Positions 25,941 through 64,000 of a stretch of DNA of 64,000 nucleotides are shown in pieces. Each line of letters opens with the position of its first letter. Positions within the stretch are counted from its first letter, which is position 1. The DNA comes from Promethearchaeota archaeon Loki_b32 (lineage in GTDB: Archaea; Asgardarchaeota; Lokiarchaeia; Sigyniarchaeales; SOKP01): NCBI GenBank assembly GCA_005223125.1, contig NJBH01000007.1, positions 64,001 to 128,000 on the forward strand, in the 5' to 3' direction. The notes beneath the pieces were generated by a model. It worked only from the letters and a program-made list of their open reading frames with translations. It ran no database searches and was not told where the DNA came from. The translations under genes and the position numbers were made by a program.

Positions 25941-26060
25941 ATGGTTCCTCTTTCAACACCACACACTCGTGCTATTGAGAGTGGCGGGCTGAATAGGTCG
26001 CCCGAAAGCTCCCTACGTACACCCCCACCTCACTAACCCCGTCTTATACGGGTGCACTCG

Positions 26061-26228
26061 TCTCGCATACTCAGTTCGCGTCACCGCGCCCTGATCTCGT
26101 TAACTCGCAAATAATCCATTTAGATTATGATGTATTCTTATGATTAGCTTCTGACGATCACAGGTGTGTCTTACTAACCAACACCAACCTAAATACACCA
26201 CTCACTCATTAACACTCGCTATACGAGA
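26061..26228 (-). other. Supersized expansion segment ES39 (helix 98), about 168 nt
   Basis: Closing stem UCUCGUAUA/UAUGCGAGA at the helix 98 position. Confidence 0.85.
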
Positions 26229-26417
26229 TTGGCTGACTATTTTCGGGTCCGACTTCGTGCTTAGATGCTTTCAGCACTTATCCGTTGGCGCGTGGCTGCC
26301 CGGCAATACCTTGTCAGATAACCGGTACACTAGAGGCGCCGGCAAAATGTTCCTCTCGTACTGATTTTCCCTTACCCTCAGTCAACCTACAAACCCAGTA
26401 GATAGAATCCGACCTGT

Positions 26418-26576
<159 letters not shown>

Positions 26577-26608
26577 TTAATGGGCGTACAGCCCCACCCT
26601 TGGGAGTT

Positions 26609-26638
26609 ATGCGCCACAGCTCCTCTGCGGAACTGCGT
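26609..26638 (-). other. 30-nt insertion in helix 91, probable relaxed-BHB intron
   Basis: GCAC-AU|A hairpin GCGC-AU|A, with one A·C mismatch in the central helix. Confidence 0.6.
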
Positions 26639-27237
26639 ATGTGCGCTCCCAGGATAGGAAGAGCCGACATCGAGGAAGCAAGCCACGAGGTCGATAGGAA
26701 CTCTTACTCGTGACAACTCTGTTACCCCCGGGGTAATTTTTCTATCACCTTAACCAGCCACACGAGCTCAGTTAAGGATCGCTAGACCAGGCGTTAGCCT
26801 CAGGATTCCTTGGTGATCAGAATCCAGTCAGACCAGCTTTTGCTCTTAAACTCTTCAGCGGATTCCTGACCCGCCTGAGCTGATCATTGGTTACTCTAGA
26901 TATTGTTTCTAGAGTGAGCCGCCCCAGCCAAACTGCCCACCTGCGGGTGTTCGATGCGATTTGCATCGTTAGTGATACCAGAGGGGAAAGCCGGTGTTCC
27001 AATGATGCTCCGCCGTGACCGAAATCGCGGCATCTACGCTCCCGACTACACTCTGTATCCAATCCAGGACCACAACAACAGGCTGCAGTAAAACTCCACG
27101 GGGTCTTCTCGTCCCACTGGGTTTCTCCGGACCGTTCGCCGGAGTGTAATTTCAATCGTCAGAAGGCTGGGACAATGGGGAGAACGTTGGACCATTCATG
27201 CACGTCTGAACTTACCAGACAAGGCATTTGGCTACCT

Positions 27238-27267
27238 TACTCTCGAGAGGTCGAGACGACGTATCGT
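27238..27267 (-). other. 30-nt BHB intron in 23S after ~A1927
   Basis: CUCU-UA|A / AGAG-UA|A; removal restores CUCUCUUAAGGUAGC. Confidence 0.9.
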
Positions 27268-28592
27268 TAAGAGAGTTATAGTTACTCCCGGCGTTTAGCA
27301 GGACTTACTCGGGTTGTAACCCGGATTTATCAGACTGCCACTGGCCAGGTTTCAGCCACTGTAAACAAGTTTTCACTCTATCAGTGACCTATGTTTTTAT
27401 TAAACAGTCGTCCCCCCCTAGTTATTGCAACTTGTGAGCCCCTTCACACTGCCGAAGCTGCGTGAAGAAGTTCGCAAGCAAGCCTTCTCCCAAAGTTACG
27501 GCTCTAATTTGTCGATTTCCCTAGCCTCCTTTACACGAATACGCCTTAGGCTACTCACCTAGGGGCACCTGTGTCGGTTCTGGGTACGATCACGGCATTT
27601 CTTACTTTTGCCTTTTTAATAGGTCCTGGGCTCGGCGGAACCTTCCACAATTGGATGGCTATTCATGGTTTAAGCTGGGTCTAAGTTTTACACTATTCAC
27701 CAGCTTTATGCATTTAAATAGGGAGATATTCGACGGCCCTATTCCACCTACCCTGAACCGTCAGCATAAAGTCGTGCGTCACCGCTATTCGTAGTGCCGT
27801 GGTACAGGAATATAAACCTGTTTCCCTTTCGCGCATACCAGTTAAGGGTACGCTTAGGATCGACTAACTCTTCGCTGACGACGCATTGCAAAGAAACCCT
27901 TGCCCTTTCGGCGGATGGGATTCTAACCCATCTATGCTTTTACTATTACCAGGATGTTCACTCCGGGCAGATCCACAGGAACTCACGCACCTGCTTCTAC
28001 TCTACCCGGACGCTCCCCTACCGGATCACGGGGTTCTTCCGCCCGTGCCCTTGGGTCTCGGTGGCAGATTTAAGCCCCGTCCATTTTCGGGGCTATATTT
28101 CTCGGCAAATGAGTTGTTACACACTCGTTAGGGAATGGCTACTTCTATACCTATCCTTTTGCTGTTTTAGAAATATAACGCCCTTCTGTTTAACACTTAA
28201 CCTGCACTTAGGGACCTTAACCCAAGTCTAGGTTGTTCCCTTCTCGGCGATGGACTTTACGCCCACCAACCCGTTTCCCAGAGTCTGCAGTGCCAGCAGT
28301 TTCGGAGTTTAAGAGCGGGGAGAGGAATTTCTTCCCCATACCACGCAATTAGTGCTCTACGCCACTGGCTGCCTCGTCTGAGACTTGGCTGATACCAACT
28401 TCGGGGAGAACCAGCTATCACCGATCTAGATTAGCCTTTTGCTCCTATTCCCAGTTCATCCAAGCGAATTGCACGTCAGCACTGGTGCAGACCTCCATCG
28501 CCCTTTCGAACGACTTCATCTTGACCAGGAATAGATCGACCGGCTTCGGGTATTATAGCAGAGACTTTTGGCCCTTTGAGACCATTCTCCTG

Positions 28593-28681
28593 GCCTAATT
28601 CCTTAGAAGGATTAGCTAAACGTTGTTAGAATGGCATAACCACTCGTTAACGAGTAGGTCTTCCTAATGTGATAATTAGGT
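28593..28681 (-). other. Enlarged expansion segment ES9, about 90 nt
   Basis: GCCTAATT/AATTAGGT closing stem around an AT-richer insert with an ACTCGTTAACGAGT hairpin. Confidence 0.75.
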
Positions 28682-29429
28682 TGCAAGAATATCGGTTTCC
28701 CTATGCCTACGCGCCGCAAGACGCTTAAGCTTGCCACTACTATAAACTCCCTGGCCAATGATTCCAGACTGATGATGCGACCCTAGTCCTCTGTATTCTG
28801 ATATTCTGTCACCAGAACTCATTCATGCAGAATCTGTCCTTTCAGGCCGCATCCTTAATAAGCTATTTGGTTTCAAGCACTTTTCACAGCCCTTCCGGGT
28901 TACTTTTCATCTTTTGTTCACACTACTACTACGCTATCGGTCTTGGGACATATTTAGATTTGCCAGCGTGTATCTGGCACATTCGTACGAGAAAACCATC
29001 CCGCACTACTCAGGGACTCTTGCAGCAGCCATCTAGATTACGATTACGCGGCTGTCACGCTCTATGGCTCAGCATTCCAGAGGTATTCATCTTCTCTAGA
29101 GAGGCCGTACAAGGCCCATACACCACATTTCCCATAGGTTTCCCTTGGGATTCGGTTTGATCTGTTCCGCTTTCGCTCGCCGTTACTTACGGAATCACTA
29201 TTGTTTTCTTTTCCTCCTGGTACTAAAATGTTTTACTTCCCAGGGTTCCCCTTCCCTGACGGGAATCTTGCGGATTATTAAGCCGCAAGCGGATGTCCTA
29301 TTCGAGAATCTCGGGGTCAGCGTCTTCATGCGACTAACCCGAGCTTATCGCAGCTTGTCACGCTCTTCATCGGTGCCCAAGCCAAGATATTCACCAAATA
29401 GCGGAGGCGTATTGGCGTTTAGTTGAGGA

Positions 29430-38823: not shown

Positions 38824-38968
38824 AGCGGGGTGGGCTAGCCTGGTTTATGCCGCAGGGCTCATAAGTTATGGAACTTGTACACCTCTTATTGAGAAACCCT
38901 GAGATCGTTCGTTCAAAAGCTAGTAATTACTGATCTCCAGTAAGCTGAGAGTCGAACCCCCGCTACCA
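38824..38968 (+). tRNA. Initiator tRNA-Met(CAT) with introns at 37/38 (38864-38895) and 59/60 (38918-38951); CCA encoded
   Basis: A1:U72 pair, three G:C pairs in the anticodon stem; both introns have BHB geometry. Confidence 0.93.
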
Positions 38969-39113
38969 TTATCATTTATTATCCTTTTCGGTAAAAACTT
39001 TTACATTACAAATAATTTAAGAAAAGAGAATCATAAATATTACTAGCTTAATAGATATTTCTATATTGAAAACCATTTAATTTTTAAATATTAAATTAAG
39101 AGAAAGGTATGAG

Positions 39114-39937: not shown

Positions 39938-40366
39938 ATGTGGATGATAATTATGGATATAAATAATTACGATGAATTATTGGATAAAGCTTATGAAAAG
40001 ATTCCAGAAAATGCAAGAAAATTATCTAGATTTGAAATTCCAAAAGTAGAACTTCGTATTGAAAGTAGGAATACATTTATTACAAATTTCAACAAAATCA
40101 TTAGCACCCTTAATAGAGACAGAAAACATTTTCTAGGGGTCTTCTTGAAAAAAGCAGGAACTATGGGTGAAGTTAGAGGACAACAATTATTCTTAAAAGG
40201 TCAATATAAAGATCAAGTCCTAAATAAATTGATCGAAAATTATACGAAAATGTATGTTTTATGCCGTATTTGCAATAAACCGGATACTCAAATTCAAAGA
40301 GAAGGGAAAAAATTATATCTAAAATGTACTGCGTGTGGAGCTAGAGAAGAAATTAAAGAAAAATAA
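39938..40366 (+). CDS. eif2b: Translation initiation factor aIF2 beta
   Basis: YDELLDKAY, RFEIP, CRIC..PDT..CTACGA. Confidence 0.95.
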   Translation: MWMIIMDINNYDELLDKAYEKIPENARKLSRFEIPKVELRIESRNTFITNFNKIISTLNRDRKHFLGVFLKKAGTMGEVRGQQLFLKGQYKDQVLNKLIENYTKMYVLCRICNKPDTQIQREGKKLYLKCTACGAREEIKEK

Positions 40367-62741: not shown

Positions 62742-63182
62742 TTATTGAGATATTATACAGATACTACTGTAATTTTGTGTATTCTCTAAAATATCATTAT
62801 AGGTTTCTAAAATGTTCTTTCCTTTAGTATCTTTGAGGTGAGTATTAAAAGGCCAAACTCCTATGATGATATCTCCTAATTTCTTAATATTACCTATCAA
62901 ATACCCCCTTTTTTCCTCATCTGGTTTAAGTGAAAACAAGATTACCAGATAATAATTATATGTATAATCAACCAACGGATTTCCAATGATGAGAACTTCT
63001 TCAATATTTTGAAAATTTAATATATCTTGATTTGTTTCGCTTAATTTTTTCAATTCTAAAATAGACTTTGCAGAAATGGATAAAGGTTTTTCAAAATTTA
63101 GATTTTTAAAACTTAAAGTAAGGTTTTTATTTTCAAATCGCTCCTGTGCTTTAAAAATTACTTTAAAAATAATAGAATCCAT
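62742..63182 (-). CDS. Hypothetical protein
   Basis: 146-aa ORF. Confidence 0.55.
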   Translation of the reverse strand: MDSIIFKVIFKAQERFENKNLTLSFKNLNFEKPLSISAKSILELKKLSETNQDILNFQNIEEVLIIGNPLVDYTYNYYLVILFSLKPDEEKRGYLIGNIKKLGDIIIGVWPFNTHLKDTKGKNILETYNDILENTQNYSSICIISQ

Positions 63183-63285: not shown

Positions 63286-63600
63286 TTATTGGATAAGAAT
63301 ATTTTCTTCAGGGAATCCTAGGTCGATTAAGAACTTTTTCATTTTAAAACGATGATCTCCTTGAAGTTCAACTTCATTATTTCTTACAGTTCCTCCAGAA
63401 GCACACTTTTTTTTTGCTTTTGTCAATATATTCTTTAGATTTACATCGAAATTACCAACGAATGTAATAACAGTAACAACACGCCCCCATTTCCTTCTAT
63501 CATTAGAAATTACTATTTGTTGTTCATCGGCACTTAAACTATCACATATACATAGTTCTTTTGGAAAACTACATATAGGACAAATGTCGTCGTTTTTAAT
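63286..63600 (-). CDS. sui1: Translation initiation factor aIF1 (SUI1), apparent ATT start; absent from the ORF track
   Basis: IKNDDICPICSFPKELCICD..RRKWGRVVTVI..KKKCASGGTV..VELQGDHR..GF, 104 aa. Confidence 0.93.
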   Translation of the reverse strand: MKNDDICPICSFPKELCICDSLSADEQQIVISNDRRKWGRVVTVITFVGNFDVNLKNILTKAKKKCASGGTVRNNEVELQGDHRFKMKKFLIDLGFPEENILIQ

Positions 63601-64000
63601 ACTCTCTTATCACAACCTTTATTGTAAATCTTTTAAAAATTTAGATCTAAAAAATAATAGAATTAAATCTTATAAAAATCTTTTTTATTTTGGAAATAAA
63701 CTTTTATAAAAATAATACTTTTTCAATTTGCTAGTTTCTTCATTGCAAAGTTATAGGATTTCAAAACCTTAAATTACGGTAAATGGAAATTTAATGACTT
63801 AAATGAAAGTTTTTCTTAATTACTAATTTCTATCAAATTTAAATTAGTTTTTAGCCTATATTTTCCAAAATTTAGAATTGACCTTCCTAAACAAAAAATA
63901 TTTAAAGAAAAATTTTTATTATTTATCAATAAGCTTATTCTTTATGTTAGAATTTTTATGTGATTCATTAAAATGCAGAGCTCATGGATTTTTAAAGTAA

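Follow-up and report, generated by a model that had tools for sequence, protein, structure and literature searches.

Does the aIF1 gene of an Asgard archaeon start at AUU, and might the factor thereby limit its own synthesis? The question is raised by a SUI1 gene on the minus strand of contig NJBH01000007.1 of Promethearchaeota archaeon Loki_b32 (GCA_005223125.1), of which we analysed positions 64,001–128,000 (64,000 nt, referred to as the window). The preliminary description of this DNA had reported a full-length 104-codon SUI1 frame with its motifs intact, an in-frame TAA ahead of ATT 63600–63598, no in-frame ATG, GTG or TTG before the CPIC knuckle, and an SD-like GTGAT 8 nt upstream of the ATT. 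When all coordinates were re-derived, each of these points was confirmed: SUI1 match and knuckle are present, the TAA (63609–63607) is preceded by a further in-frame TGA (63612–63610), the first canonical start is TTG 63426, and GTGAT occupies 63613–63609. The positions of the features are collected in Table 1.

The minus strand reads AAAGGTTGTGATAAGAGAGT ATT AAA AAC GAC GAC ATT TGT CCT ATA TGT. From stop to stop the frame comprises 106 codons, and from the ATT to the last sense codon it encodes 104 residues. As ATG, GTG and TTG are absent in-frame before codon 59 and stops lie upstream, the gene must start at the ATT; the stops directly upstream exclude an earlier start. Two later codons were rejected. 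Initiation at TTG 63426 is ruled out because residues 1–58 are conserved as protein, and its product would be without the zinc-knuckle cysteines, which are encoded ahead of every canonical start. The second ATT (codon 6) is ruled out because codons 2–5 preserve K-[DN]-D-[DE] through synonymous changes, which indicates that they are translated; furthermore, the Shine-Dalgarno (SD) sequence would stand 23 nt off. An AT-rich intergenic spacer of ~370 nt separates aIF1 from a divergent upstream gene. The gene therefore has its own promoter, without translational coupling to another gene, and heads its transcription unit. A 146-aa ORF without any Pfam match follows 103 nt downstream in the same orientation; it is possibly co-transcribed with aIF1.

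Table 1. Features of the aIF1 locus and of other translation genes in the window (positions within the 64,000 nt; strand in the third column).
Feature	Position	Strand	Remarks
aIF1/SUI1 coding sequence	63286..63600	−	104 codons plus TAA stop (63288–63286); from translation, Pfam and NCBIfam
ATT (AUU) start codon	63598..63600	−	sole near-cognate codon from the in-frame stops to the conserved N-terminus
Tandem in-frame stops TGA TAA	63607..63612	−	two codons upstream of ATT
First in-frame canonical start, TTG (codon 59)	63424..63426	−	from ORF list; product would be 46 aa
Zinc-knuckle codons CPIC...CIC, residues 7–19	63544..63582	−	from translation; CxxC...CxC
SUI1 domain, residues 26–97	63310..63525	−	PF01253 profile positions 2–77 of 77
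Putative interrupted SD AGGTTGTGAT	63609..63618	−	agrees at 8 of 10 bases with AGGAGGTGAT, the SD predicted from the 16S 3' end
Purine-rich 8-nt spacer AAGAGAGT	63601..63608	−	between SD and start; differs among relatives
GTG mini-ORF, GTG ATA AGA GAG TAT TAA	63596..63613	−	5 codons plus TAA; out of frame, overlaps ATT
A/T-rich TTTTTAAAA box, candidate TATA element	63631..63639	−	in the ~370-nt intergenic region
146-aa ORF	62742..63182	−	downstream of aIF1
Initiator tRNA-Met	38824..38969	+	CAU anticodon, GGG/CCC anticodon stem, A1:U72, encoded CCA
aIF2-beta	40013..40345	+	PF01873 match; ATG start; ~1 kb from initiator tRNA
Archaeal 23S rRNA	25955..29418	−	3464 nt, compared with a 2987-position model

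The product matches Pfam SUI1 (PF01253) with an E value of 3.6e-18 and 66.2 bits (cut-off 25.5), and the NCBIfam model PRK00939 with 115 bits (cut-off 98). The knuckle cysteines are invariant in an alignment of 15 Asgard aIF1 sequences; an N-terminal CxxC...CxC zinc knuckle is typical of most archaeal aIF1 proteins. No second SUI1 gene accompanies it in the Loki_b32 genome (4.13 Mb, 95.5% complete), and orthologues were found in 108 of 121 genomes from the class and in 98 of 101 from the phylum. The gene is thus the single-copy archaeal initiation factor aIF1.

NCBI proteins of relatives begin with MKDDDICP, so the ATT codon has already been taken as the start in that annotation. The pipeline labels them 'stress response translation initiation inhibitor YciH', a name that traces to the PRK00939 subfamily model. 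YciH is a bacterial stress-response homologue of SUI1, found in organisms that use IF3. Identity with it was ruled out, as the genome is archaeal (16S and 23S rRNA, aIF1A, aIF2 alpha and beta, aIF6), and the name is misleading for an archaeon. Other callers (Prodigal-type public gene calls) shorten aIF1 to 70–90 aa. Gene finders limited to ATG, GTG and TTG thereby lose the zinc knuckle, and they likewise mis-call other genes with AUU, AUA or AUC starts (ATH in the DNA) in such genomes.

We followed the start through relatives of Loki_b32. In 22 other species of the genus, ATT stands behind an in-frame stop one to three codons upstream and the motif AAGGTTGTGA. The arrangement is identical in 17 more genus members and in ten other genera of the family; ATT, upstream stop and motif were found in every one of the 40 genus loci examined. 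We compared 71 main-copy loci, which represent 12 genera of the family: 64 start with ATT, three with ATC and four with ATA (the four belong to one genus, where the SD contains a GTG that is in frame as well). None has ATG, so that relatives do not carry the ATG which, according to the preliminary description, would have spoken against a functional AUU. Synonymous sites near the start and the 8-nt spacer vary freely among the family loci. At the level of sequence, this shows the AUU start of aIF1 to be real and conserved, and to be held by selection across the family, where it never turned into AUG.

It is hardly conceivable that the odd start is an artefact or a sign of decay, be it a sequencing or assembly error, a pseudogene or a 46-aa product made from the TTG. 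One might point to the complete lack of a canonical start and to the shortened public gene calls. However, independent assemblies of 40 genus species are identical base for base at the start, the frame is intact with its N-terminal knuckle conserved as protein, and the gene is the sole aIF1 of a nearly complete genome.

Some members of the genus and family, but not Loki_b32, contain a second aIF1 paralogue (~60% identical). It has a perfect GAGGTGA as SD, the GTG of which is in frame, four codons before ATT/ATA-AAA; a well-placed ATG is never present.

Starts of the ATH type are not unique to aIF1 in Loki_b32 but fairly common (uL16, Pop5, DJ-1 and others). In an SD-anchored test, we searched 3544 long ORFs for strict 6-nt SD matches in their 5' zones. 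Of these sites, 215 had a canonical start at the right spacing (ATG 144, TTG 55, GTG 22), and 75 had only ATT, ATA, ATC or CTG there, compared with 42 expected from interior SD-like sites. A second test considered ATT and ATA codons within five codons of an upstream stop. An SD at the right distance preceded 14% of these, 4.6% of all other codons, and 1–3% of the composition controls AAT, TTA and TAT; the excess corresponds to ~35 genes. A looser SD-anchored version, in which 5-nt runs counted at each of 11 offsets, let too many sites pass to bring out ATH starts. We listed ~25 strong candidates and estimate that roughly 35–55 genes start in this way behind an SD. In 10 of 20 tested candidates a Pfam domain begins 2–21 residues past the odd codon, and the next canonical start would cut it. 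These domains are Response_reg (a receiver-domain protein), DJ-1/PfpI, DUF134, Pop5, AFOR_N (aldehyde ferredoxin oxidoreductase), FAA_hydrolase, DsrE, uL16, a NikR-type RHH protein and a ferredoxin. Examples of ATH-start loci outside the window are C36:106901–107593, C61:66557–66937, C58:39251–39823, C45:31131–31571, C36:6904–7383 and C67:87605–89164 (contig:position). Among SD-led starts of Loki_b32, TTG accounts for ~25% and GTG for ~10%.

As turnover controls, three genes of Loki_b32 with ATC or ATA starts were followed through the same family. For uL16, 23 of 28 loci read had ATG, and ATC/ATA was confined to three genus members. The FAH-family hydrolase had ATG in 18 of 22 loci and ATA in two close relatives. 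Pop5 was more variable (30 loci: ATG 12, TTG 8, ATH 8). ATH starts in the controls normally flip to or from ATG within a genus, while that of aIF1 is unchanged over 12 genera. By these comparisons, selection against AUG is specific to aIF1.

Outside the family, we assigned starts by visual inspection, using stops, the homologous position and the distance to the SD. Within the class, one other family has ATA, GTG or TTG plus one genus with ATG, two have ATA without a canonical alternative, one has TTG and two have ATG. In the wider phylum, aIF1 of a GC-richer, Thor-like family apparently starts with CTG in seven genera; three genera have GTG. ATA behind AGGAGG is found in two families, GTG in several and ATG in about fourteen, including the Odin type. 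Altogether, an ATA start of aIF1 occurs in four to five other Asgard families. The near-cognate start looked for upstream of SUI1 in Loki and other Asgard genomes, as the preliminary description had suggested, is thus kept throughout the family; other lineages are mixed, and some have ATG. These assignments suggest that elsewhere in Asgard the aIF1 start codon turns over, mostly not to ATG.

CUG starts are rare in archaea. Three of the Thor-like genera with CTG have an in-frame stop one codon upstream of it and AGGAG ~10 nt before it. In the aIF6 gene of one genome of that family, an in-frame TAG is followed by TCT ACG TCA ATC where a relative has ATG; no canonical start is available, which implies ACG or ATC behind GGAGG.

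We also determined the starts of a panel of five conserved genes in four genomes with CTG or ATA at aIF1. ATG was found in 12 cases, TTG in seven and a non-canonical codon in one. With 19 of 20 other conserved translation genes starting at ATG or TTG, the odd start is specific to aIF1 in these genomes too.

A neutral explanation would hold that start selection is relaxed throughout the lineage, that ATH behind an SD works well enough, and that aIF1 is unremarkable. The many unrelated Loki_b32 genes with ATT, ATA or ATC starts placed just ahead of their Pfam domains, as well as the statistical excess of SD-positioned ATH codons, are what it predicts. We nevertheless consider it improbable, since the odd starts of the three control genes are young and usually ATG in relatives, whereas that of aIF1 is fixed over 12 genera, and since the distant Asgard families with CTG or ATA at aIF1 have canonical starts in nearly all other panel cases.

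Outside Asgard, the sampling was narrow and comprised, besides a set made up mostly of Bathyarchaeia, one further phylum (Thermococcus type). At 80 loci, mostly from Bathyarchaeia, the nearest in-frame canonical start was ATG in 73 and TTG or GTG in seven, and none of the 80 was without a canonical start. For 30 loci of the phylum with the Thermococcus type, an in-frame ATG is the evident start. Since ATG is used in many Asgard families, in Bathyarchaeia and in the Thermococcus type, a weak-start design is not general to aIF1. The Thermococcus-type proteins are without the zinc knuckle, and their genes share a conserved GGTGA-CTG-GAT-GAG-ATG, in which a TGA stop lies inside the SD and is directly followed by CTG, three codons before the ATG.

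The leader was examined for elements that could place a ribosome on the AUU. The 16S rRNA of Loki_b32 ends in ...GGATCACCTCCT, and the full SD derived from this 3' end is AGGAGGTGATCC. Against it, AGGttGTGAT at −18 to −9 of aIF1 pairs at five positions and, beyond a 2x2 mismatch, at three more. Clean ATG genes of Loki_b32 show their main maximum of GTGA at −10 and a second one at −13; the GTGA of aIF1 at −13 is inside the SD range of the genome, and the motif is three bases further out than the optimum. Each of its bases is retained in at least 80–90% of 66 distinct family leaders, and a conserved interrupted SD, AGGTTGTGA, precedes the start in all 71 main-copy loci. An SD role is supported by the perfect GAGGTGA, GGTGAT or AGGAG that stands at equal distance in the second paralogue of some relatives and in other Loki-class families. 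We infer that the interrupted motif acts as the SD of aIF1. The spacer that follows has variants such as AAAAGAGT, AAGAGAGC, AATAGAGC and AAGACAAC among relatives, which demonstrates mutational opportunity beside the unchanging ATT.

The TTTTTAAAA box further upstream is moderately conserved in the family leaders. Lying ~35 nt upstream, this TATA-like box could put the transcription start inside the SD-like motif. A conserved RNA structure as competing explanation was ruled out: RNAalifold predicted no consensus pairs (energy 0.0) for the 66 distinct family leaders from −45 to +36.

The GTG within the SD-like motif opens a mini-ORF (63613–63596) which the preliminary description had noticed. 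It is indeed out of frame and overlaps the ATT, but this arrangement is not kept at loci that have an ATC start or a different spacing. The mini-ORF has five codons in 54 of 69 family loci, 14 codons where aIF1 starts with ATC, and one to four codons in some loci; at seven of the 69 its GTG is in frame with aIF1. Its TAA is forced by ATT together with the conserved AAA. The mini-ORF is probably incidental and mostly a by-product of SD and ATT-AAA. Alternatively, translation might begin at GTG 63613, with aIF1 reached by termination-reinitiation at ATTAA or by a +1 frameshift at TAT-TAA. The frequent five-codon form, whose TAA overlaps the ATT, fits such a scheme, and so does the TATA-like box, which lies ~23 nt upstream of the GTG and could leave the mRNA nearly leaderless. 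We regard it as very unlikely all the same: the peptides differ among relatives (MIREY, MIKEY, MIREH, MIRQH, MKKKY), the 14-codon form of ATC-start species ends elsewhere than at the start, a conserved slippery site is missing since either TAT or CAT precedes the stop, and the GTG lies inside the SD-like motif without an SD of its own. As a family-wide mechanism, reinitiation or frameshifting is ruled out by the varying lengths and frame.

An unusual initiator tRNA was also ruled out as explanation, because a normal one with CAU anticodon is encoded in the window; ATH starts are therefore read by mismatch. The tRNA gene apparently contains two introns, of which the first follows the anticodon loop and the second interrupts the T-loop. 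It was found by a pattern search and had been missed by ARAGORN, which reported few tRNAs in the Loki_b32 genome, and by the Rfam gathering search. The genes for aIF1A, aIF2-alpha, aIF2-beta and aIF6 of Loki_b32 all start with ATG.

What might the AUU be for? In the mechanism that we propose, the ordinary CAU initiator tRNA would read the AUU of aIF1 with a third-position mismatch, and the interrupted, slightly over-spaced SD (AGGuuGUGAU, 8 nt upstream) would position the ribosome there. As aIF1 would destabilise 30S initiation complexes on non-AUG codons, an excess of the factor should depress initiation on the aIF1 mRNA and a shortage should raise it, and this negative feedback would fix the start-codon stringency of the cell. 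Support for the biochemical step comes from other archaea. According to PMC4705826, which cites Hasenoehrl 2009, 30S complexes of Sulfolobus solfataricus reject an AUU mRNA in the presence of aIF1 and accept it without aIF1. The aIF1 of Pyrococcus abyssi proofreads erroneous complexes and favours mRNAs with a well-placed SD (PMC6237735). Binding to the 30S subunit with discrimination against non-AUG codons is known only for the aIF1 of these two species. If the mRNA of a proofreader combines a weak codon with a weakened SD, the protein should restrain its own production. The retention of a weak start in aIF1, while the odd starts of control genes revert to ATG, is consistent with this. Self-limitation of aIF1 through its own proofreading at the AUU is the best reading that we can offer, and we give it an even chance of being correct; the conserved start fits a feedback like that of infC and eIF1 but does not prove it. 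Proofreading against AUU, AUA and AUC may be lax in the Loki_b32 lineage, as the common ATH starts suggest, and the loop could be correspondingly weaker.

The main rival is simple expression tuning: AUU and the sub-optimal SD would keep aIF1 low or proportional to ribosomes, with no dose-dependent feedback. The conservation of the weak start fits such low-level tuning equally well. In reporters of Staphylococcus aureus, non-canonical starts cut the yield to ~10% with no feedback being required, and Escherichia coli pcnB is cited in the same work as an AUU gene that is simply limited in translation (PMC13009471). Against this, the gene product is the very factor shown in vitro to reject AUU (PMC4705826), which makes a dependence on its own level hard to avoid. 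Moreover, ATG with a weaker SD could also give low expression, yet ATG occurs at none of the 71 loci, and the four other initiation-factor genes use ATG. We judge tuning alone to be somewhat unlikely.

The self-limiting reading has precedents in the other two domains. Bacterial infC, encoding IF3, starts at AUU, and its autocontrol was proven by mutation of AUU to AUG (Butler, Springer and Grunberg-Manago 1987, as listed in PMC4705826); infC of S. aureus has an AUA start, with autocontrol inferred (PMC13009471). In both systems, the gene for a fidelity factor itself starts with AUU, AUA or AUC, behind an SD and conserved in relatives, and the codon drifts among these three but not to AUG. The two factors differ in that IF3 and aIF1 have unrelated folds and work with different initiator-tRNA carriers. 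Furthermore, the SD of aIF1 is interrupted, Loki_b32 has many other ATH-start genes where E. coli has two or three, and the feedback, proven for infC, is a proposal for aIF1.

The eukaryotic factor eIF1 (SUI1) autoregulates through an AUG in poor context, as was proven by Ivanov et al. (2010; PMC2964218, as cited in PMC6237735). It shares with aIF1 a homologous SUI1 fold, the site on the small subunit, the role in stringency and the weakness of its own initiation site. Unlike aIF1, whose codon is non-AUG and is placed by putative SD pairing, eIF1 keeps AUG with a weakened flanking context and relies on scanning. No AUG in poor context of the eIF1 type is present at the aIF1 start; the weak elements are the codon and the interrupted SD. 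Direct inheritance of the weak-start design by eukaryotes is not implied, as the Asgard families sampled outside the class appear mixed, many with ATG or GTG.

SD-directed AUU or AUA starts that limit expression without feedback are described for E. coli pcnB and for S. aureus cvfC1, ccpN and citZ, as far as covered by PMC13009471. Like aIF1, these genes have a conserved near-cognate start behind an SD, with a yield expected below that of AUG. Unlike aIF1, they encode no start-codon proofreader, and they rely on extended strong SDs where that of aIF1 is weakened. Our literature search turned up no publication in which the aIF1 start codon is noted or interpreted, and a review of archaeal initiation from 2020 uses none of the words autoregulation, feedback, AUU and non-AUG. 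Self-regulation of the proofreader via a weak start, known for IF3 and eIF1, was not found described for archaea in the searchable literature. Asgard archaea are the closest archaeal group to eukaryotes, and the deep conservation of an AUU on aIF1 among them would turn such self-regulation into a design principle of three domains.

With an estimated 1–5% of the genes of this lineage starting at AUU, AUA or AUC, the aIF1 loop would buffer the expression of that set. Going further, we tentatively propose for Lokiarchaeia-type Asgard archaea that the level of aIF1 acts as a global dial for an AUU/AUA/AUC regulon, including ribosomal and RNA-processing proteins, and is steadied via self-initiation at AUU; this broader proposal is doubtful. 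If it is true, each of the three domains would have a start-codon proofreader with a self-limiting start site, and the recurrent AUU, AUA and CUG starts of Asgard aIF1 would be a prokaryotic counterpart, possibly a forerunner, of the poor-context autoregulation of eIF1.

A minor observation concerns the 23S rRNA gene of the window. The ~480 bases by which it exceeds the model could represent expansion segments or an intron. The 16S 3' end is on the same contig, beyond the window.
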